Shown here one piece after another: positions 28,740 to 54,447 of a stretch of DNA of 64,000 bases. The notes beneath the pieces were generated by a model. It saw only the letters and a program-made list of their open reading frames with translations. It did no database searches and was not told the DNA's origin. The DNA is taken from the NCBI RefSeq assembly GCF_015706575.1, contig NW_024037073.1, forward strand, positions 19,958,740 to 20,022,739, given 5' to 3'. Made by a program: the position numbers and the translations under genes. This stretch comes from Patiria miniata. Its lineage: Eukaryota. Every line of letters begins with the position of its first letter. Positions within the stretch are counted from its first letter, which is position 1.

Positions 28740-31700
28740 GAGCAGATCCAGTTGGCAAAGAAGGAATGGGAACTGGAGCGTCTGCAGGCCCTGAAGGAGG
28801 AGGAGGAACGCAAGGCGGAACAAGAAGAGGACGAGATCTTCTTTACCTACTGTGATGAGGAAGCTAAAAATAAGGTGCATAAGAGTAGATCTAAGTCTAG
28901 GCAGACCCAGGGTGGTAGCTCGCGGGCCGGCAGCCAGAAAAGTAGTCGGGCAAGCAGCCGCTCAGGTAGCGCAGAGCGACCAAAGCGTAACCCTCCGGCT
29001 AGTACCGGACGCAGCACGCGGCGCAATCCAAAACCAGATCCCGCGGCAGACGATTCGGGTCCGAGGTCACCTGTAACGAGATCAGGTGCCACCAAGTCCC
29101 CGCCCCCTCCCACAACTGCAGTCCTCTCACCAAGATCCCCCTTGGCCCGGTTAGCTCCAACCAAACCATCTGCCAAGAAAACAGGGTCTGCAAAATCACC
29201 TCCTGAGAAGACGGACACTGCCAAGTCCAAGCAGAAGTCAAAAGGACAGAAGTCCAGTATGCCTAAAGAGCCAGAGAGTAAGCAGAGCTCAGAATCAGCA
29301 GTAAGGCAGCTTGGAGAAGAAACGTCACGCAGCTGTAGTTCACCCATGGATCTATCTGTCGGTGGTCCTAATGCCACAGTGTCAGCAACAACACCAATGG
29401 ACTTGTCCATGAGCCCTAGAAAAGACAACAAGCAACAGGAGGTCATGGTCAAACACACACCAACAAGTGTTACCAGTGAGCCATCAAGCAACCCCACTGT
29501 GACTACATCCCCACCTAATAGCTTCAATGTCCAGCCGCTAAACCTATCTCCTCGATCCAAGCAGCCCCAACACCCAACGAATTCTGACTTGCCTCCTATG
29601 CCTGGCTTGGTATCCAGCTTGACAGGTAGTGGTAGTCCTCCTCCACCCAATCCAAATCTCCCCTCCATTCCTCTACTGCTTCCAAGGCATCCGCTGTCAT
29701 CTCATTACTCGTCTACTCCTACCGTGCTGACAGAGACTCCCTCAATCCGGGCCTCTAATCCCAACAGCCATCCTAGTTCAACTTCATCTAGTCTAGAGTC
29801 TATTCTCCAACGAAATCTGAATGTGGTTGTTTCGTCAGCAACTGGTGTACAGTCACTAACCGCTGCCCAGCTTCTTTCGCTGGGCATGTCCCGACCAAAC
29901 TTGAGCCCCCTGCAGCTTGTGCAGCCTGATACTCCCGGGATTCCACCACGGTTTGGTTTGCCCACTCAATCTCAGATGCTCCGCAATCCTCCACCTTTAC
30001 AGCCAATGCCGCATCAACAACATCTTCGTCCACAAGCACAGCATGCTACATTGCTTCAGCAGCAATATCGGCTACAAGTTCAACAGCAACAGTCGCAGGT
30101 GGCAGCTGCATCCTCACATCAGATGTCATCATCACCCCAGCCACAGCCACAGTCCCAATCACAAATGCCAGTCTTGGCACGCCTCCAGATGCTCACTCAA
30201 CCCAGAATGGCTTCTCCGTCTCAGACCCCTACTCTCCGTCTTTCTCTGTCAAGACCACAGCTGCAAATGGCCCAGAGGCAGTTGCTAGCACACCAGCAGA
30301 TTCTAGGGGCAGCCCGTCTACGTTCATCATCCATCATGCAATCTCAGCCAAGGCAACAGGGTCAGCCAATTTTGGCTCGTCTAGAAGTCTTGCCAGTAAG
30401 GCAACCTCAGTTACAGAGCAGAGGCAGCTCTGAGCTCCTGACCGGTTTACAGTTAGCTGATTCAAGGACAGCAGTGGCTCGACAAAAGGTACCACTGCAG
30501 CGAATGCCACACCCTGTTCGGATACAGGCTCCAGTGATAAATCCCCAGATTTTGTTACAGTTGCAGTCCCAATCCCAGACCAAGTTGCAGTCCCAGACCC
30601 AGCCACAGTCCAGGCCACAAACCATAGCACAAGCTTTAGCCCAGACTCTGGCCCCACAGAATTTCCCGGCTCCAACACACCTGCCATCTACATCTCAAGG
30701 CCCGTCTCAGACACCAGTTTCGATTTCTGTTGTCCCCGTGTCTCACCAGCACACGGCCCAGCCCCAGCACCAGCCCCAGACAGCAGTACAAACCACTCAG
30801 GATGCCCCTGTCAATATGCCAACACCCAGTCAGCACCAAAGCACCACTAACGGTGTCAAACAGTTGCTCACGCTGACAGTTCCAGATGCAACTGTACCTC
30901 GTGGTGCCCCAGTTGAAAAGCTGGCACCTACCCTCACCAAAGCATCACCCCAGGCAGCACAAGGTTCATTAATAAGCACACAATCAGACAGGGAAACATT
31001 AACAAATGCACCAGCTCAACAGTCTCCAAGTACAGTGTCTAAGGTTGCAACTGATTCCCAAAGGACAAGTGTGTCAGAAACGCTTCCAAATCTATCGGAC
31101 ATCCAGATTTCAACCCATGCAGAAGCGGCCAGTTCTGCCTTGAGTCCACCCCAACTTACTCCTCAGCCTCGTGTAGATGCATCACAGTCGGGTGAATCAC
31201 AGATCCAGTCACTATCCCAATCTTGGACTGAATCAGAGTCAGTGTCGCAGATGTCACCACCCTCCCTTGCAGTGTCAGGGCAGATTGCTTCTGTCGCCCG
31301 AGCAGACTCTTGTCCACAATCCTCAAATCAGACTCTTCCTATTCACCAGGAATCGTGTACCCTGATGAAGCAAGTGGACGCTGCCACATCATTGGATTCA
31401 GAACAGATACTTACAGCTGCTTTGTCTCAATTGAAACAAAAGGAGGAAGGTGCGAGTGATAACACACCAAAAGAAAGTGCAATTCCTCAAATTTCATTTC
31501 CTGACCTGAGTACCTCCCCATCTCAACTCTCAACACCTGCCAATCAGTCCAAACCAACTCCCCTGTCCTTCCCCCAGAGGATATCCCCACACCCGACACA
31601 CTCGCCCCCTTCTACACAATCCTCTCCGAATTCTCAGTCCCCGCCTCTGCCAAAATCACCAGCCCTGTCTTGCTCCCCAGAGCCGCTTGACCTCTCACCG

Positions 31701-32693
31701 CAGCACCATAAAGTCAGTCCTCTGAAGGAGGCAGTGAGACGTTCATCACAACATGACTCCACATCCAGGTCTGGTACAGCTCGTAACACCGAGAGGTGCA
31801 TATTTGACCTTTCCCTCTCGAGTTCAAGTGCCCGTCCTGATGCAGTGCATTCATCAAGCAGCCAACCAGAGCAAAAGGATGGGCGTATTTCACTCCCCAA
31901 GCAAGATACAAATCAAGTGGAAGCTCACCTTACCTCAAGAATGCATCTGAACGCAGAGTCTGTACAGAATTCCACGACGGCAAAATCACCCGAGCCTGAT
32001 GGCAGAGAGGAAAGCCACGAGCAGCGGAACATATTCCAAGTGCTCTCCTCCTTAATGAGATCACCCCCACCTGCCTCCCCAGCTCTGCCGCTTTCACCAT
32101 CGGAGGTCGTCTCGCCTTCTTCGGCTTCTCCAGTCCCCGTGCCATTTGATCTGACCATTCCTAAATCTCCCCAGCCGTCCAAAACAATAGCGGCCCAGCA
32201 ACACAAAAATTACCAGTCCGAATTAGATAACGTTGCTGCAGCAAACTCTGATGGCTTGTCTCAGTCATCGACCTCTGTTAGAAATTTTGCGCAAGGCGCA
32301 TCTAATGACACATCCTCCCCCAATGCGGCCACCGAAGCGCCGTCGTCACCGGAGCTAGCCAAGGCTGCCTTGGCTAAGAAACTGGCCAAGATCCAGCTGT
32401 CCAGCGTGGACGACGGTAGGGAAAGCACAGGGCCCCGGACCCGAGCGATGAGCGGCGCTGAATTGGCAGATAAGCTCATCCAGACGCGATCGCGTAGCCG
32501 GCACCATTCAGCCAGCCCTGCGCTAACCCACAGGGACTTGAAAGGTTTGTCCAGGGCTAGCTCAAGGAGCAGCTCTGCCACCAACTCAAGGGATGTCTCA
32601 CCCGCGAGGGGTGGGACGCCAACGGCCACAGATAAAAATGTAGTGGTGAAACGGGGGAGGGGGCGCCCTAGAAAGTACCCAGAGCGCAGTTGA
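28740..32693 (+). CDS. SRCAP/EP400-like: SRCAP-type long terminal exon: EQIQLAKKEWELERLQALKEEEERK…, then about 1250 aa of S/P/Q-rich low complexity, ending in an AT-hook (KRGRGRPRKYPERS) and a stop. The first 135 nt (28740-28874) are also the upstream part of the EP400-type isoform, via the internal donor AAG|GTGCAT
   Basis: Uninterrupted 1325-codon ORF (28716-32693). Acceptor tgtttaatcag|. The start resembles EP400 WEFWNLKTLQEREARLRLEQEEAELLTYT. The GRP-core AT-hook at the C-terminus is typical of SRCAP. Confidence 0.85.
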   Translation, partial: EQIQLAKKEWELERLQALKEEEERKAEQEEDEIFFTYCDEEAKNKVHKSRSKSRQTQGGSSRAGSQKSSRASSRSGSAERPKRNPPASTGRSTRRNPKPDPAADDSGPRSPVTRSGATKSPPPPTTAVLSPRSPLARLAPTKPSAKKTGSAKSPPEKTDTAKSKQKSKGQKSSMPKEPESKQSSESAVRQLGEETSRSCSSPMDLSVGGPNATVSATTPMDLSMSPRKDNKQQEVMVKHTPTSVTSEPSSNPTVTTSPPNSFNVQPLNLSPRSKQPQHPTNSDLPPMPGLVSSLTGSGSPPPPNPNLPSIPLLLPRHPLSSHYSSTPTVLTETPSIRASNPNSHPSSTSSSLESILQRNLNVVVSSATGVQSLTAAQLLSLGMSRPNLSPLQLVQPDTPGIPPRFGLPTQSQMLRNPPPLQPMPHQQHLRPQAQHATLLQQQYRLQVQQQQSQVAAASSHQMSSSPQPQPQSQSQMPVLARLQMLTQPRMASPSQTPTLRLSLSRPQLQMAQRQLLAHQQILGAARLRSSSIMQSQPRQQGQPILARLEVLPVRQPQLQSRGSSELLTGLQLADSRTAVARQKVPLQRMPHPVRIQAPVINPQILLQLQSQSQTKLQSQTQPQSRPQTIAQALAQTLAPQNFPAPTHLPSTSQGPSQTPVSISVVPVSHQHTAQPQHQPQTAVQTTQDAPVNMPTPSQHQSTTNGVKQLLTLTVPDATVPRGAPVEKLAPTLTKASPQAAQGSLISTQSDRETLTNAPAQQSPSTVSKVATDSQRTSVSETLPNLSDIQISTHAEAASSALSPPQLTPQPRVDASQSGESQIQSLSQSWTESESVSQMSPPSLAVSGQIASVARADSCPQSSNQTLPIHQESCTLMKQVDAATSLDSEQILTAALSQLKQKEEGASDNTPKESAIPQISFPDLSTSPSQLSTPANQSKPTPLSFPQRISPHPTHSPPSTQSSPNSQSPPLPKSPALSCSPEPLDLSPQHHKVSPLKEAVRRSSQHDSTSRSGTARNTERCIFDLSLSSSSARPDAVHSSSSQPEQKDGRISLPKQDTNQVEAHLTSRMHLNAESVQNSTTAKSPEPDGREESHEQRNIFQVLSSLMRSPPPASPALPLSPSEVVSPSSASPVPVPFDLTIPKSPQPSKTIAAQQHKNYQSELDNVAAANSDGLSQSSTSVRNFAQGASNDTSSPNAATEAPSSPELAKAALAKKLAKIQLSSVDDGRESTGPRTRAMSGAELADKLIQTRSRSRHHSASPALTHRDLKGLSRASSRSSSATNSRDVSPARGGTPTATDKNVVVKRGRGRPRKYPERS

Positions 32694-33810
32694 CAAACAC
32701 TGAGGTAACAACCAATGCAGTTCATTTAAGTTAATTTGTAAAAGACACGGCGATGGTTATGTGCAAGAAACTAGTTTTACTCACTGACCAAAGATGTGTG
32801 TATTTAAAGATTTCTTGGTAGGAAAAGTTCTGAGATGTGTCGCAGCAGAGCTGATAAAATCGTTACTTGCAAGGAACGCACTCAAAGCTTTAGTTCCTGC
32901 AGATGTTTAATTTATATTTCAGTGCTTTTGATGTACTTTAAGGGCTGTTTAGTTTCTCTTGATGTCTGGTTATTACCCATAAGAGGCATCATCGATAGGA
33001 ACAATACGATGTTGTGATAGATTGCCAAATAATAGCCAGGTATTATTTGATATGACATACCGATATCACATTCTTAGTGCTTTGTACTTTTTTTTCAGAG
33101 TACCTCTTAAATTCCTTTTTACACTGTGCCATTTGAAAATTTGCAAATCTGTGGTCCCTTTTCTATGACACACAACCTGGAGAAGAATTGTGAATTTTTG
33201 TATTTATTTTGTATTGTATTTATCAATTCTCTTGAAACCAAGTGTAAGTGGTATACTAATTGAACCACGTGACTTCCCCCCCCCCCCCAAAAAAAACCCC
33301 TCAAACCGTATCAACTTTTGTAACTTGACAAGCACAGATAGATTCTGTTTTTATTGTTCCCCGGTTTTCAAATTTGTTGTTTTGCCTTGATTTGAAATGT
33401 TGCTCATCAGTACATTTAGATTAAGTTACACTCACACGTGGTTTACCAAAGCACGGTCAATTTTTTGGAAAGTGAAGCAGGCCAGTTAAGTAAAAATTGG
33501 AAAGTTTTTTTTTTTAAAGACCAGCCTTCATCACAAGTCAAGCATAGCTGCCGCTTTTGGGGTCATTCTCTGTTTGTGTGTGTTCGGTAAAGTAAGAATC
33601 GATGTTAATAATTTGCCGACAAGTGAAAAGAAAATGACCAAGTTAAATTAATTCCTAGAATTTTAAGCTAAAGTCATCAGTTGGGATGGGGCTTGATTTC
33701 TAGGGCACCATTAGATTTATTGAGCAAGATTAATTTGTTATTTCGCAGAATGTGTTTCCCTGTATTTTTGTATTGATAAGCAAGAAAAGATGATGTTGAA
33801 GAATGGGATC

Positions 33811-33816
33811 AATAAA
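33811..33816 (+). promoter_or_regulatory. candidate poly(A) signal AATAAA for the SRCAP-type isoform (about 1.1 kb 3' of the stop at 32693)
   Basis: First canonical AATAAA downstream of the stop codon in an AT-rich UTR-like region. Weak. Confidence 0.3.
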
Positions 33817-34759
33817 TGAAAGATTTATGTTCGAGAAAAGAAAAAGAAAAGTTTCTGTCTTTACTTCCTTTGGTTTTATGCTCTGAGTTTGGCCAGGCTA
33901 AGTAAGAAAAAAAATAAAATCAAGAAAAACGTGAGAACAAAACAGAAAAAAGATGAATCGGAACAAAACCAAAAATTATGTACAAAGATCGTTTGATACA
34001 GTTGCCAAGCATACTTCACAGATGCCGCCCACAAAAAAAATGTACCCTGGCCCAAAATTATGCTATCTCTCTCCAAATTGGTGACAAACAGTGCACTTTT
34101 GGCAGGTTCACAGATGCCAAACCCAACCATTCTGCAAATTGTTTGATATTTTGTGGCCAAAATTTGAAGAAGAAAATTATTGTTTGCCTGTGCCATTCTG
34201 AGCAACCATTAGAAACCATTGGAGGTAGAGATGAGCTTTTGGGCCAGGGAAGGGTGCTCACTAGGGGAACACTTGAAACGCGTACAGATATGCCATAATT
34301 CGTGCCAACCTGAACATTCATAGAGGAATTCTAAAATTTTCTACTCTGGAAAAAGGAGTTCAAAATTGAACAGAGTAAGGCATGGTTCATACCTGACAAG
34401 GAAAGCCAAGCGATCTTCAGTAGAGGAGAATACGAAATTAAACAGGCGGTTATTTGAGGTTTTATCAAGGTTTTACGATGATTTACGGGGAACCTTGGGG
34501 TTAAACCGCGGGGTTAATTTTGCATTTTCTCCCATATTTTAACAATGTTCTCTTCGTTGTGATGCTCGCTGTTGCCTCAACACATTTGCTTCACTCTTTT
34601 CATGTCAAGTATGAACCAAAACTAAATCATCAGGAATATTTTTACTGAACGTTGCTTGGATGAAAATATCAAGAATTAGGACCTGATAAATTGGCAAAGT
34701 CAGAATTAGGAAAATCTGTAAACGGGCATTTTCGAAAGGACAGTATCAGTACAGTACAA

Positions 34760-35465
34760 GGTGAGGGAAAAACAAAGAAGACCCAAATGGCAGGACCATT
34801 TCCTTAATAAAGTTCTGCATGTCGCACTTTCAAAATCTAGGATATAAAAGCCCAATTAATAAGCTTTCTTTTAGTACAAAATTCATTCAAATCACCCATG
34901 TACTTCTCAAGCTACGGAATTTTGAACACAACCACAGTTTTATAGTTCTGTCCACAGATCACAAAAAAAGGTATTTTCTTTCAGCAAAATGAAAACAATT
35001 TACATGTGCCCTATGTGAATTGTTTTCGTTTTGCCGAAAGAACGTACCTTTTTTGGTGATCTGTGGACAGAACTTTGAAATGGTGGTTGTGTTTAAAACT
35101 CCGTAACTAGAAATGTGTTTGTGATTTGAATGATTCTTGTACTAAAAAGAAAGATTATTAATCCCAACTCCCCAGCCTAATTTACTAGGAACCATACCCA
35201 TTCTGGCAAATTCAAACACCAACATGGGAAATAATACACACACACTTTTGGACTTAGTTTCTGGAGGTATGCCAACCCCAGAGTAAAAGACCATCAGTTT
35301 AGGAGTACTGTACCTATCCCAACAGATTTAAACAAAACCTGCTGTTTAACTTTGATGGGTTGAGTTCGGTTAGGGTTAATTGGGCTTTCATATCCTAGAT
35401 ATTGATAGTGCTACATGCAGAACTTCACTCAAAAATTGGTCCTGCCATTTGGGTTTCATTGTTTT
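34760..35465. repeat. about 700-bp foldback / long inverted repeat (centre near 35010)
   Basis: 34780-34860 is the reverse complement of 35375-35455. 34855-34925 is the reverse complement of 35100-35165. 34925-35010 is the reverse complement of 35010-35100. Confidence 0.65.
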
Positions 35466-35574
35466 TCTACTCACCCTGTATGTATAACTTAAACCAAAAA
35501 CAATTGGGCCACTAAAACATAGTTTGGTACAGCGGTCATTCTTCATAGCGATTTTAGGCTGTAAATGAATATTA

Positions 35575-36060
35575 CATAAAATTGGGGATGTTGGTTATGG
35601 GCTCCCTGCCCGAACAAGAAGGGGCACTTTTTGACCACTTTCGAGAGTCTCGTGGACGGGACACTACGTGCGCATAGTGGTTCGCATGCGTGTGGTGCGA
35701 AGTACGCGTGACTAATTTTTTTCTAAGTAAGTTTTGAATTTTTGCATGGTGGTTGTGTAAATTAGTGAAGGTTTTCGGTAACACCATGTGGAATAATCTC
35801 TTTCGAGAAGATGTCACCCACAGGAACCAACCGGTTCTTTTCAGAGCCACACATCTTCCCAAAAGAGATTTCCACATGGTGTTACCGCTAACCTTCACTA
35901 GTTAATTTTATTTGCTTTATACACAATGCCAAAGCGTTTTTGCATGAGCATCAGGCGTCAGTGGTAATGCGTTGGAATGTCTCCCAGTGGTCTTCCCCAA
36001 CTCTCCCTTTCTTACCAATGAGGGGGTACTTGTGCCGGAGCCCATAGCAGAATGTTTGGC
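35575..36060. repeat. dispersed repeat family F (motif TGTCTCTCCCAGTGGTCTCCC…GAGGGGGTACTTGTGC; internal hairpin 35740-35900). Other copies or fragments at 11885-12180, 22425-22810, 42070-42350 and 50495-50640
   Basis: Shared 20-60-nt blocks among the five loci. Confidence 0.5.
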
Positions 36061-37220
36061 ATATCGGTGTTTGTCATAGGGACGTTCTACTTTAACACTT
36101 TCAGTAAAAGTACAATTTTCGAGTCAAGAGCACTAAACAGAGTGTGCACAGTCAGAGAAAATATCCACTCCCAAAATCTAAGAATTACATTTGAAACACA
36201 CACATTTCAAGAGCTTTCCAGTGAAATAGGGGGAAAAAAACCTGTATGGGTGCATAGAATTTTTTTTGCAGAGATTAGAAAAAGAGCTGTGATGTGAATT
36301 CGGAGAAACAGAACCACATTTCCTAAATATTTAAGTTGGTATCCTTTTGAGAAAGATGAAGAGTGGGCATATGATTTTGCTAACTTACCTCAAAACCAAA
36401 CTTTGTAGTTAATGTAGTCTCATTTATATAGAAATTTGGTAAATACTTTGAATCATGAAATCTGAAAATTAACATGGAAGTTCTGCAAGAAAACATAAAT
36501 TATTCCAAGGTTCAAACATTGTTCAGTTAACTCATCCGGGTACATGTACTTTAAACTTGAGTGTCCTTTCAAGGTCAGTTTTAAACCCCCAGCACTGCTC
36601 AGAGGTAACTGTGTGGAAAAAAAAATATCATTTTGGGGCGAGCACTCTTAGGTGTACTTGTAACCAGTGATTGTGACATCGCTACTGACAAAATGGGGTA
36701 CGTTTAAGAAGGAACCTGAAGGGGTGTAGCTACGTAGTGAAATGTGGGTCATTCTATACATTCAGGGTCCAAATTGTGACCTCCTTCCTGTCCCTTTTAC
36801 CTTGGTACTTTGTAATCTACCTTTCAAGTATCATTAAGAATTACTTCAAATGATGTACTTGTTGGGTAGGTGGTTTGTTATTCATAATCACTCTTGGAGG
36901 GCGACTGCATTAAGGAGTGCATCAGAATTATAAAATCATAAATGTCAGATGTAACAGGGACAGGGACAACAAGTGGACCCCAAATTGATAGAATGCCCAC
37001 ATGCGCAATGCAACACAACACCATGCAATACAACGTCAACAAACTCTCAGATATAATCATGTTGAATCTAAGGGCTAGAAGAAGGAGGAAAAGCTATGCA
37101 TGTTCATTGTTTATTCCTTGGAAGATTGAGTGATGTTCCAAGACGGATGAACCTGAGAGTTGACGTGCATAATCTCGTACTCAAATTATTGTGGATGCCT
37201 TGTTTGTTTTCTCCCTGTAG

Positions 37221-37253
37221 GTGTACATTTCCAACAAAGATGACATCATGCCG
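37221..37253 (+). CDS. SRCAP/EP400-like: EP400/Domino-A-type isoform micro-exon (VYISNKDDIMP)
   Basis: Strong acceptor ttttctccctgtag| and donor CCG|GTAAGT. 33 nt, phase 0/0. Resembles EP400 YVYEDVDGQTEVMP, which directly precedes the LWTPPTPP motif. Confidence 0.6.
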
Positions 37254-38050: not shown

Positions 38051-38201
38051 ATCTGGGCTCCGCCCACCCCACCCCAGGATGAAAATGACGTCTACGTGGA
38101 CCTCTCAGCCAGCCTCATGTATGACACCTCCATCATGATGGAGTCCAAACTGCCTCCCGTCTACGTCAAGAAAGAACACAAGAAGACCAAAGTGGAACAA
38201 G
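38051..38201 (+). CDS. SRCAP/EP400-like: EP400-type exon (IWAPPTPPQDENDVYVDLSASLMYDTSIMMESKLPPVYVKKEHKKTKVEQ)
   Basis: Matches EP400 LWTPPTPPQDDSDIYLDSVMCLMYEATPIPEAKLPPVYVRKERKRHK. Acceptor ttttcaag|. Donor G|GTATTG. Confidence 0.85.
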
Positions 38202-39070: not shown

Positions 39071-39336
39071 GTATCCGCAAGATCAAGCCCCACACCAAGT
39101 CAGGCGAGGTGCCGCACCACACGGCGCACATCATGACCCCACCCCAGTCCCTCTTCAACCGCCCCTCGGCGGCCCTCCTGCGCATGCGACGCGAGGCCAA
39201 GCAGCAGAAGCTACGCGCCATGGCCGGCAAGCCCGTGGTCAAGCCGTTGCCCATAGTGCACCGGACTACCTCCACGGACATGCAGACGGCCGATCGGCAC
39301 GAGTGGCTGATCAACGAGGATTGGGCATTGCTGCAG
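39071..39336 (+). CDS. SRCAP/EP400-like: EP400-type exon leading into the SANT domain (…SLFNRPSAALLRMRREAKQQK…DRHEWLINEDWALLQ)
   Basis: Matches EP400 RSLFDRATPGLLKIRREGKEQKK…NPEWLISEDWALLQ. Donor CAG|GTATGC. Confidence 0.9.
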
Positions 39337-43385: not shown

Positions 43386-43511
43386 GCAGCACAGGAGCAA
43401 CAGCAGCGACAGCGGATCCAAGATGCTCAGGCCAAGCAGCAGCAGGCTGTAGCAGCTGCAGCAGCAGCAGTAGCTCCACCAGTCACTACTGCCACTACAG
43501 CTACAGTCATG
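43386..43511 (+). CDS. SRCAP/EP400-like: EP400-type A/Q-rich exon (AAQEQQQRQRIQDAQAKQQQAVAAAAAAVAPPVTTATTATVM)
   Basis: Acceptor gcttacag|. Donor ATG|GTACAG. Phase 0/0. Analogous to EP400 ALADQQKAQQ…. Confidence 0.75.
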
Positions 43512-44069
43512 GTACAGTTACCCTTTGACCTTTAACCCTTCACCCTTAACCTTTCACCCTTAACCCTAGCCATTGCATAAAATTTGGCAGTGCACAGTTT
43601 CTCAACACACAGACATGATGGCATGCACATTTTTTGTGTTCTCAACTTCTATTGTGATTGCTAGCCTTGAGATTGCACTGTCTTTACGTTTGGATTTAAA
43701 TCAAAAAAACAAAAGTACTCTTTTTGGCTGTGGAACTTTGTTCAATTTGGGTCGTCTTTCGTCAGGCTGGTACGTTCCCTGTCATTCGTTGTTTGCAGGG
43801 CAAGATATCCCATCAAACCAGTGCAGAAATCTTAGTGTTTCACTATACATTTTTTCATTCACCAGCGTCAGGCTTCTCTTTGCATTCATCCCACTGATTT
43901 CCTCATTGTCACAACCCTACCCAAGGGTGCTGGTTGTGGCTGGTCTCTGATGAAATGTTGTCTAGGAAATACAAAGCACTGGGGGGGGGGGGGGGGGAAC
44001 ACATTGCCGACCAAGAAACCCTTGCTCATTGGTGCCCAACTCATCCCATTGCCATTTCACATTCCACAG

Positions 44070-44273
44070 CAGCCGGGTACCATCAATCGCACGGCGCTGG
44101 GCACCACGGCCATCCGCGTGACCGGCGGCAGCGCCAACAGCATTGTGGTCAATACACCCGGCGTGGTGACGGCCATTCCGGGCAACTCCTTCGCAAACAT
44201 CAACAAGCGCATGACCCAGCAGCAGGTGGGAACCATGGCGACCATCTCGGGGGCCACGCCCGTCATGGCTACT
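44070..44273 (+). CDS. SRCAP/EP400-like: EP400-type exon (QPGTINRTALGTTAIRVTGGSANSIVVNTPGVVTAIPGNSFANINKRMTQQQ…PVMAT)
   Basis: ORF 43950-44327 frame. Acceptor ttccacag|. Donor ACT|GTAAGT. Resembles EP400 NVIVNTIAGVPAATFQSINKRL. Confidence 0.8.
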
Positions 44274-45039
44274 GTAAGTGTGTATGTGTGGGTTTGTTTA
44301 TGGTGTAAATCGAGGACACGCATGTGAAACATCCTTGAGTAATTGAGGACAAGAGTCAAAACGAGGATGTCCTTGTTTAGAAAACGTGTACAAAACCAAT
44401 GGGAGCTGTTGCAAAAAATTAGAGTATAAACAAAAGATCGATGGTAAAACAGGTAGGGTAGGACAAAAATTTGCAGAAAAGCCTTTAAAAAGTTCACAAC
44501 ATGCTCCTTTTTCTAAAAAAAACACCCAAAGTCTTTCATGCCTTTATCATCACACCATGCCCATTCACAACATTGCTTTTTGGGTTGTAAAATTCCCACG
44601 TTATTTTTATAATAAATATAGTGGATCTGTGTTGTATGCTCACTTTAGCCCTAACGTCCTAACGGCTCTTTCGGGGTCAAGGACCAAATACCACAGAATA
44701 CTACATGTGTTGTGCACACTTGTTTGGAAAGAAATGCATACTACAGGTTTCTACTCGGTAGTATTTTGTAGCTTTAGGTGAGGTTAGGGTTAGTACTTGT
44801 AAGTCCTAAAAGGTTTCATCTGAAAGTGCACAAACCCTAGGTATTTCCCAGGCGGGTTTTTGAGGATTTTGTGCAGTATTGAGGAAAGTACTGGCAAGTC
44901 ACTGAAAGTTACAAAACCAAATGAAAGTGGCATAAGTTTTCTGCATGTCAGAGGATTTGAGATGAGTTGGGAAGGTTACTAGCAAGGTTACTAGCAAGGC
45001 TACTAGCAAGGTTAAGGTTACTAGCAAGGTTACTAGCAA

Positions 45040-45450
45040 GGTTAAGGTTACTAGCAAGGGTACTAGTAAGGTTACAGTGGAGCACTGTGGTCCAGTGGTT
45101 ATGGTGTTCCACTCATGTGCCGTGGTACATGGATTCGAACCCTGACGGGGAAAACTGTGCTTGTGTTTGTGGCAGGGCCAAGTTTCACTTGTGGTTTTTA
45201 ATGTATCGTTAGTTTTTTAGTATAGGAGTAGCCCCCTGAATAAATCTAGCCTTTTTAATAAAAAGGCTAGATTTATTCAGGGGGGCTACTCCTATTTTAC
45301 ACTAACAATACATTAAAAACCACAAGTGAAAGTTGGCCCTGCCACATGTTCTTGGGCAAGAAACTTTACTACAATTCGAGCGATTCACAATGCAGTGCGC
45401 CACCAAGAGTTTGCCATGGAGAGTCAACTTTTCAAGTTTACGGTCAACAA
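45040..45450. mobile_element. two tRNA-derived SINE-like copies arranged head-to-head around a 68-bp near-perfect palindrome (45225-45292)
   Basis: A-box-like CAGTGGTTATGG and B-box-like GGATTCGAACC in the + copy. The shared segment GGCAGGGCCAA(G/C)TTTCACTTGTGGTTTTTAATGTAT is inverted. A further fragment of the same element lies at 45630-45720. Confidence 0.55.
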
Positions 45451-45960
45451 AATATGGCCCATTTGAATGAGTGTCAGTAGACACTTGAGCTAATTTGTTA
45501 TAGATAGGGGCGTAGCGTTCAGCCGCCTTACCAAAAATCACCATATTGATACGAAGAAAAGAAAAGAAAAGGGCAAACAGATACTCGAATCATACGCTTA
45601 CGAAACTACTGACCTGTGTCCTGCGCTGCGAATTTGTCGACCATCTCCCACAATGCACTGGGAAGAATGAACTCTCCATGGCAAACTTTTGGTGGCGCTC
45701 TGCATTGTGAATCGCCCGAATTGCCTCTCTCCAGCCAGGAGTATAAATGGGTACCTGTGAAGGTAGTGACTACATTGCGCTGATCTCAAGCTGCTGCAGA
45801 TCAATGGTCTCATGGCCTGATGAACAGGGGTAATAATTGGGAAGCTGTTTGATACCTTTGGTTTAAAGCGCTATAAAAGCACCACATTATTATTATTATT
45901 TTTATAAAAAATGTTATGGGAGTTGAAGATCTATGACATTTCCTTTTTCTTCTGAACAAG

Positions 45961-46159
45961 GTTGCAAGTCCCCTGGGGCAGGTAGTCCGTGCCCAGGCCG
46001 TCCGCACCACCATCGCCCACGTCTCCCTGCCTAGCTCGGCAGGCATCATCACAAGCCAGGTCCGTGCACCAGTCACATCAGGCACGCAGGTGGTCATCAC
46101 CTCTGCAGGGTCTGTCAGCCAGGCTAGATCAACGCCCACCGCCACTGCTACAATGACAG
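45961..46159 (+). CDS. SRCAP/EP400-like: EP400-type exon (VASPLGQVVRAQAVRTTIAHVSLPSSAGIITSQVRAPVTSGTQVVITSAGSVSQARSTPTATATMT)
   Basis: Open frame with the required phases. Acceptor ttcttctgaacaag|. An alternative in-frame acceptor exists 21 nt downstream. Donor G|GTAGGC. Confidence 0.6.
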
Positions 46160-47224
46160 GTAGGCACTTGGCGATTCTTTACCGAGGCTGATTTCAAAAA
46201 AAAATTTCTCGTCTTGTAACGCATCTTAACTTATAAAGCGTCCGCTCTAAGACTGATGGTTCAGGGAGTAACAGATTTAGCAAAACACATAGAAAAACTC
46301 ATCATAAATACAGATGAACTAAGTAAGATAACATGACCAAAAAAATCCATTTTAAAATTTTTTAATGAGTTTAGTTGCATTCAGAAGGAAGTAAGGACAC
46401 GGTTAACACAGTTCGGTCAAATTGATCCTAGTATCAGTTATTATTTAAAAGTAGAGTAAATCATTTGCAGCTATCCCAAAAAGTAACTGACGAATTATTG
46501 TTGATATGTACACCTGGTTTAAAGATAGTAATGGTACTAAACTCCCTGTGAAATTATTTCACAGCATGCTGGCATTTCACAGCATGCAGCTTTCTGCCAT
46601 GCTGTCATTTTGAAGAAAACACTAAAAGAAGGCCATTTCTAAAGATGAGTCTAAAGACGCATATTTGGAAATTTCCGGTAGTAGTTCGTTTTTATATTCG
46701 GCAAAGACGTGAATGGGTGCCCACCAGCTTTGACACAACGCACACGCGCGCATGGTTGATACAATTCGTCGGTTCAGTGTGAGACATAGCATAGCTGCAA
46801 TTGGCTGAATAAGAACGTGTCCCAGACGCTGATTTCGGGCACAATTCAAAACATGGCTCCGCAACTTTTGCATTGAAATCGAGATCCTAGAATATTGTTG
46901 TATTGGAATATTCAGCATTCACTGAGCTAAAATAAAACATCATCAGGTAAGTTGTTAAGCACCCTTCTGTAGATGTTGAGCACTGTTGTTGCTTCTTACG
47001 AACAAAAAGGAAAAAAGGCAAATGATATACTCTACCTTTAAGGTACCCATCTGAAAATGGGCGTTATCGTTTTTGTATGAAATCAACCTGTGGTCTGTGA
47101 ATGGGCGTCACAGAGATTTGTGATAAAACAAATCTGTGTTTTCTCTGTCTTTTTGCATTTTGGGATATATGTTTACACATTCAAATAATTCTGGAAAAAA
47201 AAAATTGTATATAAGGCCCAAAAA

Positions 47225-47590: not shown

Positions 47591-47627
47591 TTGTCAAATA
47601 TTGTACTTTTGTGTTGACTACTAGCAG

Positions 47628-47719
47628 CTAAGGTAGCCCAGTTCAGCCTGATAAAACAGCAAGCCATAAAACAGCAACTGATGCAGCAGGCTCAAGCACA
47701 GCAGCAGGCACAAATCAAG
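47628..47719 (+). CDS. SRCAP/EP400-like: EP400-type exon ((A)KVAQFSLIKQQAIKQQLMQQAQAQQQAQIK)
   Basis: Acceptor tactagcag|. Donor AAG|GTCAGT. Enters in phase 1. Confidence 0.65.
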
Positions 47720-49121: not shown

Positions 49122-49313
49122 CGACTGCAGCAAGCCCAAGCCCAAGCCAAGGTGGCCCAGGCCCAGGCGGAGGCCCAGGCCCAAGCTGTGCAGAAACAGC
49201 TCCAGTCCGGCCAGAAACCACCCACCAGCAACGTGACGGTCAGCCAGGTGGCTGCGACGACGTCCTCCCTGGCCCAGCCTCAGCTGACCCAGGCTGGCCA
49301 GGCCAGGGCACAG
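49122..49313 (+). CDS. SRCAP/EP400-like: EP400-type exon (RLQQAQAQAKVAQAQAEAQAQAVQKQLQSGQKPPTSNVTVSQVAATTSSLAQPQLTQAGQARAQ)
   Basis: ORF 49152-49364 frame extended upstream to the acceptor ccaacag|. Donor CAG|GTCAGT. Confidence 0.65.
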
Positions 49314-49835: not shown

Positions 49836-50267
49836 ATGCAGTTGGCAGGCAAGACCGTTACCCGGGCCATCAAGAACGAGGAACTGACGGCCATCCTGAG
49901 GCGTCAGCAACAACTCCTGGCCAGCCAGAGCCAAAAGAGCCAAAAGACCACCACCACGGCCATCACCACCCTGCCCCTCACCACGGTGGCCGGACTCAAG
50001 GGTATCACCCTCAGCGGGCTGACAGTCAGCACTGCTGCAGCAACGGCGGGAGCACCCAAGGGTCTCACCCAGGCCCAGGCGCAGGCCCAGGCCCAGGGGG
50101 CCGGGGGAGCTCAACAACAGCAGCAGCAGCAACAAGCTCAGCAGCAGCAAGGCAACATCCCCATGAAGCCCCCGACTCTCCCTGGCATGGTGGCCAGGCC
50201 CAAGATCAACTTCACCCAGATACAGCAGATGCAGAAGGGTCAGCACCAGACCAAGCAGCAACAACTG
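49836..50267 (+). CDS. SRCAP/EP400-like: EP400-type exon (MQLAGKTVTRAIKNEELTAILRRQQQLLASQ… with a polyQ/AQ run)
   Basis: ORF 49836-50381. Acceptor tcccttag|. Donor CTG|GTGGGT. Confidence 0.75.
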
Positions 50268-50385: not shown

Positions 50386-50472
50386 AAAATCACTCGGGTG
50401 GGACTCGAACCCACGACCTGCTTTCTAGTGCAGAAGTCTTACCGCTCAACTACCGAGCTTGCCGGGTCGGCT
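50386..50472 (-). mobile_element. tRNA-like element / tRNA-derived SINE head
   Basis: On the minus strand: T-arm GTGGG-TTCGAGT-CCCAC, acceptor 3' strand CCGAGTG, a discriminator, then a TTTTT pol III terminator, with a 10-bp hairpin (CCCGAGTGAT…ATCACTCGGG) immediately 3'. The D and anticodon arms do not fold canonically. Confidence 0.4.
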
Positions 50473-50683: not shown

Positions 50684-50854
50684 CTGACAATCAAAACCCA
50701 GCAACTGTTGGCTCAACAGCAGAAGATGCAGACAGGCAACACCGTAGTCAGCCAGACCCAGCAGCAAGGAGCCTCGGGGACCATCAGCCAAGCCCAGATC
50801 AGGATCAGCTCCCCGTCGGTATCAGTCGCCGTCACTGGCTCGCTGGCTAGTCAG
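50684..50854 (+). CDS. SRCAP/EP400-like: EP400-type exon (LTIKTQQLLAQQQKMQTGNTVVSQTQQQGASGTISQAQIRISSPSVSVAVTGSLASQ)
   Basis: ORF 50660-50890 frame. Acceptor ccttaccccag|. Donor CAG|GTATGG. Confidence 0.75.
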
Positions 50855-51330: not shown

Positions 51331-51499
51331 CTTAGAGCTGCTAAGTAGATAGTACGAGTGTTAATTGTAAATTTTACAGAAGTTTACGGTCATTTAACCC
51401 TAACCTCACCTAAAGCTACAAAATACTGTAGTAACCTGTAATATGCATTTCTGCCAATACAAGTGTGAGCAACACATGTAGTATTCTGTTTTTTCAATT

Positions 51500-52018: not shown

Positions 52019-52165
52019 GTTGTGCAGACAACAAGCAGCCAGCGGCAACGTCTCTCACAGCAGGTCAGCACGTTGACCCCGCAGCAACTACAGCAGGTCA
52101 GAGTTCAAAGGGTCACGACCTCCCAGGCTCAGGGCAGCCCTGCGGTAGTGCAGCGAGTAGGCCAG
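52019..52165 (+). CDS. SRCAP/EP400-like: EP400-type exon (VVQTTSSQRQRLSQQVSTLTPQQLQQVRVQRVTTSQAQGSPAVVQRVGQ)
   Basis: ORF 52010-52213 frame. Acceptor gacacag|. Donor CAG|GTGAGG. Confidence 0.75.
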
Positions 52166-53310: not shown

Positions 53311-54447
53311 GTCCAGCAGTTGGGCACAGTTCGACAGCAGCTGCAGCAGCAAGTCAAGCAATCAGGGACAGGAGCTGGGGCCACGCTGTCCATCCAACAG
53401 GCCGGCAAACCGGTCACTATCATCCCGACGGTCTCAGGCAACTCGCTGCTGACCGTGGCAAAAACTATGGGTGGCCTGCCCCAAACCCTACCCATGACTG
53501 CCTCCACGAAACAGATCCTGACACAACTGATGGCAGGTGGAGGGACGCAGAACATGGCACAGCTGGCCCGGGTGATCTCCCAGGCGCAAGCCCTGGCGCA
53601 GAAGGGATCACAGAGCAGCGGCTTACAGCCTCAACAGACGGTGACTGTGCAGAGCGTTCCAGGCACTCAGCCGTCCAGGGGACAGGGCCAGGCGAGCACT
53701 AGTGGAGCGGCATCAGTTCAGGTTGCCAGCTCGAGTCAGGTGACGGCGTCCATACAACCCCAGGGGACCATACAGTCAGGATCGCCGGTGCAGGTCACCC
53801 TGAGTGCCCAAACGACCAAAGCGCTGTCACTGTCACCGGCGGAACGGCAGGCTGCGCTGAAATCGGCAGCACACCGCCTGGTGCAGCAGGCCCAGACACC
53901 GCAGGCTCAGATAAAGCAGACGGGAACGGTCCAGGCGCGGCTGCAAGCAACAGCTGCCGCGCATCAGCAACTGCAACAGCAGCAGCAGCAGCAGAAGCTG
54001 CAAGTCCAGCAGCAACTTCAGAAAGCGCAGGCCCAACAACAGCAGCAGCAGCAGCAACAGCAGCAACAACAACAGCAACAAGCACTTCAGAGCCTGACGT
54101 CTCAGTCCCAGACCCCAACCCAGGCCAAACTTGAGCCACAGATTGAAGCCAAGCCACAGTCGCAGTCTGTACCACAGCCCCAGCCGCAGCCCCAAGCTAC
54201 TCCACCAGTTAGGGAACAAGCCCCAGTAGTGGTAAAAACCGAGTCACCAACTGTTGCCCTGCCCACAGCCACAGCCACAGCCACAGCCGTCAAAAAACCT
54301 GATACGCATCCACCTGCCTCATCACCTGAGCCTCAACAGCAAGCAGCACAGTCTAAACAACAGCAGCCACCCACCACGGCAGCACCAGTCAGGGCCTCTC
54401 CATATGCAATGAGATTACGCAAACCTTCCAATCCATCAAAGGAGTAA
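53311..54447 (+). CDS. SRCAP/EP400-like: EP400-type terminal exon: Q-rich, uninterrupted run of about 20 Q, ends …RASPYAMRLRKPSNPSKE then a stop
   Basis: ORF 53224-54447 (407 aa). Acceptor ctttctacag|. PolyQ as in the EP400 / Domino-A C-terminus. Confidence 0.8.
   Translation, partial: VQQLGTVRQQLQQQVKQSGTGAGATLSIQQAGKPVTIIPTVSGNSLLTVAKTMGGLPQTLPMTASTKQILTQLMAGGGTQNMAQLARVISQAQALAQKGSQSSGLQPQQTVTVQSVPGTQPSRGQGQASTSGAASVQVASSSQVTASIQPQGTIQSGSPVQVTLSAQTTKALSLSPAERQAALKSAAHRLVQQAQTPQAQIKQTGTVQARLQATAAAHQQLQQQQQQQKLQVQQQLQKAQAQQQQQQQQQQQQQQQQALQSLTSQSQTPTQAKLEPQIEAKPQSQSVPQPQPQPQATPPVREQAPVVVKTESPTVALPTATATATAVKKPDTHPPASSPEPQQQAAQSKQQQPPTTAAPVRASPYAMRLRKPSNPSKE
54030..54085 (+). repeat. mixed CAG/CAA array encoding the polyQ run in the EP400-type terminal exon
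   Basis: CAACAACAGCAGCAGCAGCAGCAACAGCAGCAACAACAACAGCAACAA. Confidence 0.9.

Follow-up and report, generated by a model that had tools for sequence, protein, structure and literature searches.

A probable Domino-type remodeller gene with two candidate C-terminal ends in the echinoderm Patiria miniata

Does a single locus of Patiria miniata encode both an SRCAP-type and an EP400-type remodeller, or do two neighbouring genes lie side by side? The window analysed here is a stretch of 64,000 nucleotides, and all positions below refer to it. In our assessment (probability roughly 0.85), it holds most of one Domino (SWR1-family) remodeller gene having two candidate C-terminal ends, with the HSA and ATPase regions common to both. 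The first ~600 codons of the gene fall upstream of the window. Both reading frames, the splice signals, and the homology and conservation of both ends were read directly from the sequence, and from these we infer that both mRNAs are produced in P. miniata. The coding sequence of each isoform is in frame with one terminal stop, and every intron is GT-AG. The original prediction had considered such an arrangement informative if the organism were an invertebrate; the source is an echinoderm, an invertebrate deuterostome, and is thus of the kind it had in mind. Among echinoderms, its sequence falls where a sea star or a brittle star would be expected.

Shared exons and the split ATPase

The exons preceding the point of divergence are as follows.

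651-809, plus strand: shared exon, C-terminal part of HSA (LVRAVARHHQEKHAKEVKAEREETQKLRRIAANMAKEIKTFWSNIEK); AG/GT borders, tblastn
1518-1722, plus strand: shared exon, HSA end and post-HSA region; exon chain, tblastn (79% identity to urchin)
2423-5704, plus strand: acidic region, four shared exons (2423-2718, 3460-3544, 4711-4923, 5481-5704); in-frame AG..GT chain
6552-12355, plus strand: ATPase lobe 1, six shared exons (6552-6729, 7416-7552, 8642-8784, 9620-9839, 10765-10901, 12169-12355); Pfam, tblastn
12887-18714, plus strand: long insertion splitting the ATPase, six shared exons (12887-13289, 13711-13922, 14479-14605, 15313-15987, 16666-16884, 18626-18714); in-frame chain
20186-25558, plus strand: pre-lobe-2 region and ATPase lobe 2, five shared exons (20186-20502, 21335-21537, 22224-22393, 24125-24321, 25444-25558); Pfam, curated borders
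26351-27933, plus strand: post-ATPase region, three shared exons (26351-26509, 27024-27197, 27850-27933, with LTNIEKYAMRYLE); exon chain

The predicted sharing of N-terminal HSA and split-ATPase exons is borne out by Pfam SNF2-rel_dom (lobe 1, E 3.8e-88), Helicase_C (lobe 2, E 9.4e-26) and the visible end of HSA. Exon 651-809 matches S. purpuratus residues 615-667 and crinoid residues 554-606 by tblastn; its Pfam HSA score of 19.3 bits (profile positions 40-70 of 71) lies under the cut-off of 23 because the window start cuts the domain. In the acidic region, the exons starting at 2423, 4711 and 5481 have tblastn support and 3460-3544 comes from the chain only, as do the last three insertion exons, which are of low complexity; the first three have tblastn support. 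Lobe 1, with 67-93% tblastn identity to urchin, scores 464.7 bits to human SRCAP 606-831 versus 240 bits to EP400, and lobe 2 scores 344.8 bits to SRCAP 2031-2212 versus 202 bits. Across the ATPase common to both products, the residues are 87% identical to human SRCAP, compared with 54% for EP400. The post-ATPase exons align to human EP400 and SRCAP alike. A tblastn search with echinoderm proteins found no further ATPase-like coding in 28.9-37.9 kb.

The composite exon and its internal donor

28740-28874, plus strand: 5' part of the composite exon, 45 codons, common to both products; acceptor and donor read
28864-28894, plus strand: internal 5' splice site AAG/GTGCAT (border 28874/28875) in a 31-nt identical block; nucleotide alignment to L001
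28875-32693, plus strand: read-through coding part, 1272 codons and stop; stop-free ORF, ortholog in L001
32649-32681, plus strand: C-terminal AT-hook KRGRGRPRKYP; Pfam AT_hook 17.5 bits against a gathering score of 17.4 bits
32694-33899, plus strand: predicted 3' UTR of the read-through mRNA, AATAAA at 33811-33816 in conserved block 33750-33899; AATAAA scan, blastn to L001

The plus strand is open for 1329 codons (28704-32690), a run that the base composition would give by chance with an expectation of ~1e-34. The acceptor ...tttaatcag/GAG sets the exon start at 28740 and, with the TGA at 32691-32693, gives a length of 3954 nt. The ORF, acceptor and Pfam AT_hook thus reproduce the predicted 3954-nt exon that runs to a stop at 32693 and ends in an AT-hook. 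Its read-through part is S/P/Q-rich, confined to the SRCAP/DOM-B-type product, and closes with ...VVVKRGRGRPRKYPERS before the stop.

No Pfam family and no PDB protein matched 28875-32693. This, together with its low-complexity composition, would suit an explanation in which only the tail-type mRNA is functional and the 3.8 kb of open frame count as intron sequence or as an unproductive intron retention. We find that explanation scarcely credible given the length of the open frame and its conservation. In L001, the orthologous contig of a related species, a 1365-codon ORF has only 46% amino acid identity to that of the big exon and yet keeps the acceptor, the 31-nt donor block and a terminal AT-hook (KRGRGRPRKHP) followed by the stop, with an AATAAA-containing block ~1.05 kb further on. 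The block at 33750-33899 matches L001 with 73% blastn identity over 172 nt and lies ~1.0-1.1 kb past the stop in both, with GGGAT[C/G]AATAAA and the downstream TGCTCTGAGTT.GGCCAGGCT kept. Read-through proteins are also modelled in Lytechinus, Holothuria and amphioxus.

As to the SRCAP-like nature of the read-through end, the original prediction stood in part: the ATPase is SRCAP-like, SANT is missing and an AT-hook is present, but no sequence similarity was detectable between the read-through part and the human SRCAP C-terminus. An SRCAP-type role would consequently be assigned by analogy, from just the absent SANT, the S/P/Q-rich composition and one AT-hook.

Within this exon, the 5' part has 87% amino acid identity to L001 and its EP400 alignment reaches the donor. 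The donor is in phase 0 and weak (PWM 1.5 versus a median of 4.15, 8th weakest of 40), as expected of a regulated site. In the comparison with L001, the 15-codon window from 28860 has the highest nucleotide identity of the whole exon (0.92 versus a median of 0.54), and its third positions reach 0.85 versus 0.40; as judged from this pair, synonymous-site conservation in the big exon is at its peak over the donor.

A distal donor might instead join the exon to the tail and yield a third, giant product with both the S/P-rich region and SANT/polyQ. One candidate is 32645 (GTAGTG/gtgaaa, phase 0): the first unconstrained exon chain took 28740-32645 and then spurious micro-exons to 37221, in phase, and in one oyster model (P0088, Saccostrea echinata) ~540 residues of read-through, AT-hook included, precede a splice to VFLSDVDQEKMPLWAPPTPP. 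Such a product is highly improbable here, since donor 32645 is not kept in L001 (...KAKRGRGRP there), the conserved AT-hook would be lost, and no echinoderm model contains it.

The tail exons and the junction

The main reading has donor 28874 joined to the following exons.

37221-37253, plus strand: tail exon 1, 33-nt phase-0 mini-exon VYISNKDDIMP, acceptor ctccctgtag/GTG; borders read
38051-38201, plus strand: tail exon 2, IWAPPTPPQD at 38051-38080; tblastn to EP400/Domino fragments and echinoderm proteins, EP400 alignment
39071-39336, plus strand: tail exon 3, PPQSLFNRPSAALLRMRRE... and SANT start (39298-39336); tblastn, EP400 alignment
39948-40175, plus strand: tail exon 4, remaining SANT (39948-40121) and ILYDTNPKKQKKSKGIYR; tblastn, EP400 alignment
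41129-41265, plus strand: tail exon 5, TKNNRPMKTSQLHTQDGNASH...; tblastn, EP400 alignment
41917-42049, plus strand: tail exon 6, NPKHSAVL (41939-41962) and RAERIAREKK; tblastn, EP400 alignment
43386-43511, plus strand: tail exon 7, Q/A-rich, weak donor ATG/gtacag; tblastn, splice sites
44070-44273, plus strand: tail exon 8; exon chain, tblastn
45961-46159, plus strand: tail exon 9, donor 46159 (phase 1) preferred to 46089; donor score, homology
47625-47719, plus strand: tail exon 10, NAGNAG acceptor (47625 or 47628); splice sites, frame check
49122-49313, plus strand: tail exon 11, Q/A-rich; exon chain, tblastn
49836-50267, plus strand: tail exon 12, Q8 at 50112-50135; exon chain, tblastn
50684-50854, plus strand: tail exon 13; exon chain, tblastn matches weak and non-collinear
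52019-52165, plus strand: tail exon 14; exon chain, tblastn matches weak and not clearly collinear
53311-54447, plus strand: tail exon 15 (terminal), Q7 at 53974-53994, Q16 at 54034-54081; tblastn E 1e-24
54871-54876, plus strand: AATAAA, 424 nt past the tail-type stop; AATAAA scan

All 15 predicted exons could be rebuilt in frame with the donor and with AG..GT borders, ending in a stop at 54445-54447. In tblastn, twelve match Domino proteins of sea urchin or crinoid in collinear order, two of them weakly under relaxed settings (43386-43511, E 2e-3; 47625-47719, E 0.2, to urchin LGQFSQLALMKIKQQ); 37221-37253, 50684-50854 and 52019-52165 gave no clearly collinear match to these proteins. The borders of 43386-43511, 47625-47719, 50684-50854 and 52019-52165 come from weak homology and splice scores only. 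Tail exon 7 is collinear with urchin and cucumber tails up to ...TATVM. For tail exon 9, donor 46159 was chosen because it scores 5.4 versus 1.4 and homology extends to ~46150; its frame fits the next exon. The conserved end of tail exon 15, SPYAMRLRKPSNPSKE, has counterparts in urchin (...SPYAMRLRKPSQSSKD) and crinoid (...RPYAMRTRTSSKH).

The EP400 hallmarks that had been predicted for these exons are present: the LWTPPTPPQD-like motif reads IWAPPTPPQD, and NPKHSAVL and the polyQ tail were found. The SANT domain was also found, although its identity to human EP400 had been underestimated at 60-70% and measures 76% over 71 residues; in isolation it scores 23.5 bits with Pfam Myb_DNA-bind_6 (cut-off 22.9). 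The segment ILYDTNPKKQKKSKGIYR is kept among invertebrates and missing in human EP400. Poly(A) sites had been expected near 33.8 and 54.9 kb, and AATAAA occurs at 33811 and 54871.

If there were two adjacent genes instead, an SRCAP-like gene would finish with the poly(A) site at 33.8 kb, and a PPTPPQD-SANT-polyQ gene, Eaf1-like and without HSA or ATPase, would have its own promoter. RefSeq annotates Lytechinus pictus in this manner, with 'helicase SRCAP-like' (XP_063967591) and 'E1A-binding protein p400-like' (XP_063967599), the tail exons starting 8.9 kb past the former on the same strand. XP_063967599 begins MPIWAPPTPPQDD, at the mini-exon Met, and the Met of ..(I/V)MP(I/L/M)W is kept across animals. 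However, tail exon 1 is preceded by a good acceptor and by no in-frame start, and a start at the Met leaves unexplained why the first nine codons, VYISNKDDI, are conserved and EP400-aligned (the exon aligns with EP400 YVYEDVDGQTEVMP, and proteins of urchin, cucumber and crinoid likewise have the peptide right after their junction). The exon chain and tblastn found neither coding signal nor homology in 32.7-37.2 kb, and the internal donor covers the most conserved synonymous sites of the exon.

EP400 homology also crosses the junction without a break on its way from the shared exons into the tail: the spliced product aligns to human EP400 2039-2491 as a single HMMER domain (E 1e-101) spanning 28874 to 37221, while the alignment of the read-through product goes no further than the residue that precedes the donor. 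Echinoderm RefSeq proteins have two continuations at one residue, ...NQ/VYISQKEEIMPIWAPPTPP and ...NK/VHKNSKN. ATPase and tail are modelled in one chain in S. purpuratus, L. variegatus, A. japonicus and two crinoids, and in many mollusc, arthropod, nemertean and coral models. We thus regard two separate genes as very unlikely; an extra internal promoter may exist alongside the joined form. The predicted single locus giving an EP400-type product by splicing agrees with the HMMER alignment and with L. variegatus X1-X3 being isoforms of one gene. A Domino-like locus with one product lacking SANT and one of EP400/DOM-A type is supported at the level of sequence.

The predicted choice between alternative 5' splice sites is correct as to the internal donor and would be better described as its use or non-use, coupled to intronic polyadenylation. 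Conservation of the donor, AT-hook and AATAAA block leads us to infer splicing versus intronic polyadenylation at a composite terminal exon, 28740-32693, where the fate of the transcript would be set. With the weak donor unused, translation would continue for 1272 S/P/Q-rich, presumably disordered codons to the AT-hook, and the mRNA would be cleaved at the conserved AATAAA near 33.8 kb (site ~33.83 kb). This DOM-B/SRCAP-type product would presumably serve as scaffold for an SWR1-like complex that exchanges H2A.Z. With the donor used, an 8.3-kb intron would be removed together with the read-through coding part and its poly(A) site; the 15 tail exons would then contribute the PPTPPQD-SANT-NPKH module and a tail of 900 residues, 22% of them glutamine. 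The resulting DOM-A/EP400-type product would presumably scaffold an acetyltransferase complex of TIP60/NuA4-like type. These roles are suggested by Drosophila DOM-A/DOM-B and human SRCAP and EP400.

Comparison with known systems

The DOM-A and DOM-B isoforms of Drosophila domino were reportedly described by Ruhf in 2001. Like the window locus, domino is one SWR1-type gene whose isoforms have HSA and the split ATPase in common, DOM-A having SANT and a Q-rich tail and DOM-B another C-terminus without a recognisable domain. The host here is a deuterostome rather than an arthropod, and its read-through tail has a conserved AT-hook at the end. Expression and complex composition, which were shown in the fly, are predicted here. 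DOM-A has been linked to EP400/NuA4 and DOM-B to SRCAP/SWR1 (Boerner & Becker 2016, bioRxiv 10.1101/052746; Scacchetti et al. 2020, PMC7239659), so the two-tailed Domino idea is not new, and this locus type is annotated in urchins. The new element is a junction common to the models of echinoderms, amphioxus and oyster, which argues that the two-tailed design is ancestral.

Annotated sea urchin loci have, as far as gene models tell, the same layout as the window locus. In L. variegatus, XP_041456346.1 (helicase SRCAP-like X1) and XP_041456347.1/XP_041456348.1 (helicase domino-like X2/X3) diverge at the same junction residue as in the window. Shared exons are followed by a 3.8-kb read-through terminal exon (X1; contig L003, 42616-46431), a gap of ~8 kb, and PPTPPQD/SANT/polyQ exons (X2/X3; from L003 54745) within one gene range. 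This is a computational annotation from another echinoderm class, with ~71% identity to the window over conserved columns. Urchin and window read-through tails can hardly be aligned, and RKIGRPRIR, the AT-hook-like motif of the urchin, has an internal position whereas the window motif is terminal.

Human SRCAP (PDB 6igm_H) has ATPase lobes 87% identical to those of the window and, like the read-through product, a long low-complexity C-terminal region and no SANT. It has AT-hooks of its own. Unlike the window locus, it is a separate gene without EP400-type tail exons. Human EP400 (PDB 8qr1_A / 8xvg_H) aligns with the window tail over the post-ATPase, PPTPPQD, SANT and NPKH regions (E 1e-101) and likewise has a Q-rich tail, but it lacks the ILYDTNPKKQKKSKGIYR insert of tail exon 4, and its ATPase (54% identical) has a long branch and falls outside the animal Domino/SRCAP sequences as a whole. 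In fungi, the window ATPase has its counterpart in yeast Swr1 (324 and 277.7 bits), and yeast Eaf1 carries HSA and SANT (PMC7239659), which resemble those of the tail-type product. Swr1 and Eaf1 are separate genes of unrelated length, whereas in the window one gene would provide both scaffolds.

Gene model and the shared ATPase

The exon chain of the locus was built from codon log-odds and generic splice-site matrices and was then corrected by hand using homology. In this correction exon 45961-46089 was dropped for 45961-46159, and the acceptor at 47633 was dropped for exon 47625-47719. The chain leads to two coding sequences with a common upstream part. Product A (SRCAP/DOM-B-like) reads through the composite exon 28740-32693 and product B (EP400/DOM-A-like) is spliced from within that exon to a set of tail exons. 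Every intron is of GT-AG type and each coding sequence has a single terminal stop.

Exons of the two products. Shared exons are those of the exon chain.
651-809, 1518-1722, 2423-2718, 3460-3544, 4711-4923, 5481-5704, forward strand: shared exons, first group
6552-6729, 7416-7552, 8642-8784, 9620-9839, 10765-10901, 12169-12355, forward strand: shared exons, second group
12887-13289, 13711-13922, 14479-14605, 15313-15987, 16666-16884, 18626-18714, forward strand: shared exons, third group
20186-20502, 21335-21537, 22224-22393, 24125-24321, 25444-25558, forward strand: shared exons, fourth group
26351-26509, 27024-27197, 27850-27933, forward strand: shared exons, fifth group
28740-32693, forward strand: own exon of product A
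28740-28874, forward strand: piece of the composite exon used in product B
37221-37253, 38051-38201, 39071-39336, 39948-40175, 41129-41265, forward strand: tail exons 1-5 of product B
41917-42049, 43386-43511, 44070-44273, 45961-46159, 47625-47719, forward strand: tail exons 6-10 of product B
49122-49313, 49836-50267, 50684-50854, 52019-52165, 53311-54447, forward strand: tail exons 11-15 of product B

According to tblastn against urchin and crinoid Domino, the window begins near residue 615 of a roughly 3500-residue protein, and the N-terminus therefore lies upstream of the window. Only the C-terminal half of the HSA domain is present (Pfam HSA, 19.3 bits against a cut-off of 23, profile positions 40-70 of 71). 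It is encoded by exons 651-809 and 1518-1722 and aligns by tblastn to HSA in the Domino proteins of urchin and crinoid, which at full length carry PF07529. The family PF15790 (EP400_N) is recorded in mollusc and nemertean homologues and not in echinoderm ones.

The shared part contains SNF2-rel_dom (E 3.8e-88) and Helicase_C (E 9.4e-26) in Pfam, and the ATPase is split as in the SWR1/INO80 type, with about 800 residues between the lobes encoded at 12.9-20.5 kb. Human SRCAP aligns to lobes 1 and 2 with 464.7 and 344.8 bits, compared to 240 and 202 bits for human EP400, and the PDB ranking for the lobes has SRCAP first and Swr1 second, followed by INO80 and EP400. At 87% identity to SRCAP versus 54% to EP400, the window ATPase does not match the divergent EP400 type. 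Since all animal Domino sequences are equally close to the SRCAP ATPase, this closeness does not separate SRCAP from Domino. In a tree of the ATPase, EP400 forms a long branch to which all animal Domino/SRCAP sequences are external (200/200 bootstraps). The animal lobes are mutually 86-89% identical and give no resolution among themselves, and the tree is uninformative on co-orthology.

Two introns of the ATPase region hold copies of one interspersed repeat (7577-7852 and 11494-11766), the conceptual peptides of which are nearly identical: VVLECGFSCLQCIVGIFA.EDRALFACTCSVMVL... The intron between exons 20186-20502 and 21335-21537 contains 17 copies of the 11-nt microsatellite AGTCCATCACA (20866-21047).

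The composite exon and its two continuations

A stop-free stretch of 1329 codons occupies 28704-32690 on the forward strand; its chance expectation, given base composition, is about 1e-34. With the acceptor tttaatcag/GAG (here and below a slash marks a splice junction) the exon begins at 28740, and with a TGA at 32691-32693 its length comes to 3954 nt, as the original prediction had it. The C-terminal AT-hook claimed for it also narrowly passes the Pfam cut-off: KRGRGRPRKYP at 32649-32681 scores 17.5 bits against 17.4, and it is conserved in the contig of a related species (L001). Product A ends in ...VVVKRGRGRPRKYPERS.

Apart from this hook, the read-through part (28875-32693; 1272 residues, 17% S, 12% P, 10% Q) matches no Pfam family, Myb/SANT included, and phmmer against PDB sequences, including full-length SRCAP (6igm_H), gave no match to SRCAP or any other solved protein. 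With product A, the alignment of human EP400 goes no further than the residue directly preceding the donor at 28874. Near the switch point SRCAP presumably has THRRSKKAK. Because the read-through part matches no SRCAP sequence, the term SRCAP-type for product A is an analogy, and its basis is the lack of SANT, the long low-complexity tail and the one AT-hook rather than tail homology.

Forty-five codons into the composite exon there is a phase-0 donor, AAG/GTGCAT at 28874/28875. The next in-phase acceptor, ctccctgtag/GTG at 37221, opens a 33-nt mini-exon (37221-37253). Fifteen downstream exons had been proposed to continue in phase with the internal donor, and the rebuilt chain returns the same number, in frame; tblastn gave no ATPase-like coding between 28.9 and 37.9 kb. 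The EP400 hallmarks predicted for these exons (PPTPPQD, SANT, NPKH and polyQ) are all in frame as well. A single HMMER domain (E 1e-101) aligns product B to residues 2039-2491 of human EP400 and spans the shared exons, the 28874^37221 junction, PPTPPQD, SANT and NPKH. The SANT domain is 76% identical to that of human EP400 over 71 residues; Myb_DNA-bind_6 scores 23.5 bits on the isolated domain (cut-off 22.9) and 20.2 bits, under the cut-off, in a longer query. The remaining 900 residues of product B are 22% glutamine with a Q16 run, and the C-terminus is conserved, with SPYAMRLRKPSNPSKE in product B, ...SPYAMRLRKPSQSSKD in urchin and ...RPYAMRTRTSSKH in crinoid. A homologue search with the tail only returned short fragments, the best being from an annelid at 47%; the lophotrochozoan affinity that this suggested was rejected, as the full-length query points to echinoderms.

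Several further features of the tail region were noted. The segment ILYDTNPKKQKKSKGIYR after SANT (exon 39948-40175) is kept in annelid, spider and echinoderm proteins and is missing in human EP400. A 105-nt tandem duplication at 89% identity (40111-40201 and 40216-40306) puts a copy of the 3' end of the same exon, together with its donor CAGG/GTAAGG, into the next intron. As read-through past the first donor meets a TAA, the second copy at 40216-40306 is probably inert. NAGNAG tandem acceptors (TAG/CAG/) are found at 47625/47628 and 41126/41129, and judging from their sequence the choice within each could add or remove one residue of the tail-type product. A scan of the window with Rfam gave no family other than a tRNA-like element (36.3 bits) at 50390-50459 on the minus strand, in the intron after exon 49836-50267. 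ARAGORN defined no anticodon for this element, a probable repeat of tRNA origin or a pseudogene. Downstream of the Domino gene, the region 54975-63914 holds tandem arrays, and no further gene came to notice there in an analysis aimed at the Domino gene.

Tandem arrays downstream of the gene. Positions are those of the window.
54975-55360: tandem array of 22/42-nt units
59429-59851: tandem array of ACTGAC-type units
60260-60451 and 62465-62849: tandem arrays of 42-nt units
60648-62078: satellite of 224 nt, 6.4 copies
62848-63914: tandem array of a 321-nt unit, 3.3 copies

Conservation of the switch in relatives

A homologue search with the read-through part gave a single match amid low-complexity words. 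This protein (P0185) comes from L001, a 6.5-kb genomic Logan contig (run SRR26532981), and represents the orthologous exon. The contig has the same acceptor, an exon of 1365 codons at 46% protein identity, the same internal donor and the terminal residues ...KRGRGRPRKHPVPS before the stop. Between the two exons the median nucleotide identity is 0.54, with 0.40 for third positions, and it peaks at 0.92 (third positions 0.85) in the 15-codon window from 28860 that spans the donor, where thirty-one consecutive bases (28864-28894) are identical. The internal donor is itself weak, with a score of 1.5 versus a median of 4.15. About 1.05 kb past the stop, the window and L001 share GGGAT[C/G]AATAAA, followed by a further conserved element.

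Conserved 3' block from the comparison with L001.
33750-33899, forward strand: conserved block with AATAAA at 33811

A second block of 24 identical bases, CGCAGCACGCGGCGCAATCCAAAA, lies at 29001-29024 in the read-through ORF, where it codes for RSTRRNPK; its surroundings have a third-position identity of 0.82 versus the median of 0.40. This block may be a regulator of splicing or polyadenylation, or a constrained basic motif.

With the full-length query, the best matches are echinoderm proteins named helicase domino, namely those of S. purpuratus (2516 bits), L. variegatus, A. japonicus and two crinoids, and they score well above those of molluscs and arthropods. Each echinoderm species among the best 120 matches contributes one locus, which, like the joined tail and ATPase described below, indirectly supports a single pre-duplication co-orthologue of SRCAP and EP400. 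Neighbour-joining on 1239 gap-free columns groups the window with sea cucumber and sea urchins, as their sister, and leaves the crinoids outside; sea stars and brittle stars are expected in this position. No protein of the same species turned up in the searched collections, and exact look-ups of the big ORF (with two alternative starts) and of the last-exon ORF in the protein collection were negative.

At the junction the spliced form of the window is ...CDEEAKNK/VYISNKDDIMPIWAPPTPPQDE, and the read-through form continues as /VHKSRSKSRQ. The corresponding sequences are ...SREDSENQ/VYISQKEEIMPIWAPPTPPQDD in S. purpuratus isoform X4, ...SREDSEN[KQ]/VHK[NS]SKNVKRKEK in the helicase SRCAP-like proteins of L. 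pictus and L. variegatus, and ...EREDATNK/VLNRRQTRSK in Holothuria, so the relatives show both continuations at one and the same residue. Together with the EP400 alignment across the junction, this supports the original prediction of one locus in which HSA and ATPase are common to two ends. The Logan sequences in the sea cucumber cluster were considered as junction-spanning transcripts and ruled out, being N-terminal genomic ORFs.

In L. variegatus, XP_041456346 is the SRCAP-like isoform X1, and XP_041456347 and XP_041456348 are the domino-like isoforms X2 and X3. At this locus (L003) X1 has a terminal exon of 3.8 kb (42616-46431), which X3 skips to resume at 54745, all within one gene range. 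The RefSeq annotation of L. pictus (L002, CM073227.1:17447503-17480881) has the same layout cut into two models, helicase SRCAP-like and E1A-binding protein p400-like. The latter lies 8.9 kb after the former on the same strand and starts at the mini-exon Met, MPIWAPPTPPQDD. Since L. variegatus has a single gene with isoforms X1-X3 for this arrangement, the split is probably an annotation artefact, and identifying one mis-split gene would be a by-product of this analysis.

Outside the echinoderms, an amphioxus model (Branchiostoma belcheri, P0170) reads through as ...KNQ/VHKSSKKRK. An oyster model (Saccostrea echinata, P0088) has ...YNQ/VKKKSKK..., with about 540 read-through residues, including the AT-hook KKGRGRPSILK, before /VFLSDVDQEKMPLWAPPTPP. 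Models from coral, nemertean, mollusc, arthropod and echinoderm (coral to amphioxus relatives) join an EP400-type tail to an SRCAP-like ATPase, and conservation of the tail-type junction, V[YF][IL]S...MP.W.PPTPP, extends from coral to human.

Proposed mechanism and comparison with known Domino genes

The two products had been ascribed to alternative 5' splice-site choice. The mechanism is better described as a splice site set against an intronic poly(A) site, with 28740-32693 as a composite terminal exon. When the weak donor is unused, the read-through ORF would be translated and the mRNA would end at the intronic poly(A) site. When it is used, an intron of 8346 nt would be removed with the read-through ORF and its poly(A) site, and the transcript would run on to the AATAAA at 54871. 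The sequence features and their conservation are directly observed. This competition and the expression of both forms are inferred, and for the expression the RefSeq isoforms of L. variegatus lend indirect support.

By analogy, the read-through product would be an SWR1/SRCAP-like H2A.Z exchanger and the spliced product a TIP60/NuA4-like scaffold; these functions are carried over from Drosophila DOM-B/DOM-A and human SRCAP/EP400 (PMC7239659; bioRxiv 10.1101/2024.07.30.605802). With functions so assigned, the locus would be a deuterostome example of the Domino design, in which one gene supplies scaffolds for H2A.Z-exchange and TIP60/NuA4-type acetyltransferase complexes. In addition, a weak internal 5' splice site whose synonymous sites are conserved is here set against a conserved intronic poly(A) site. 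Such a well-delimited regulatory element could reveal how the ratio of one complex to the other is set in cells.

The link of DOM-A with p400 and of DOM-B with SRCAP was proposed by Boerner & Becker 2016 (bioRxiv 10.1101/052746) and demonstrated biochemically by Scacchetti et al. 2020 (PMC7239659). Only for Drosophila is it known that the two isoforms nucleate distinct complexes, one for H2A.Z exchange and one with TIP60 acetyltransferase (PMC7239659). The isoforms of Drosophila dom part after residue 2008. Similar isoforms were noted in other insects and a spider (Scacchetti et al. 2020, PMC7239659), and splicing in flies versus paralogy in human was framed as different evolutionary routes, or convergence (PMC7239659). 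Our literature search, with the 2021 review by Scacchetti & Becker outside its scope, found no paper on deuterostome invertebrates. In practical terms the gain is modest, since flies had already established the concept and loci of this type are annotated in sea urchin RefSeq models.

We consider it somewhat probable (roughly 0.6) that the two-isoform design and its exact switch point are ancestral to bilaterians and were later split into vertebrate SRCAP and EP400. Read-through at the same residue in the amphioxus and oyster models, together with the fusion of tail and ATPase from coral to echinoderm, favours an ancestral two-isoform gene. As the switch residue is common to amphioxus and oyster models, vertebrates likely inherited such a gene. 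Judged by these sequences, the ancestral switch may have had a donor after N[KQ], with V-[HK]-K-x-SK and an AT-hook on read-through and V[YF][IL]S...MP.W.PPTPP when spliced. SRCAP and EP400 would then be isoforms made separate genes by duplication, each with one end, and the EP400 ATPase would have been freed from constraint afterwards. Such a history differs from the published view in which fly splicing and human paralogy are separate routes or convergent (PMC7239659). If true, this would be a clean case of isoform-to-paralogue subfunctionalisation. With respect to Drosophila, the ancestral reading opposes an invention of the two-isoform gene within arthropods, as the switch residue is found in echinoderms, the amphioxus model and the oyster model.
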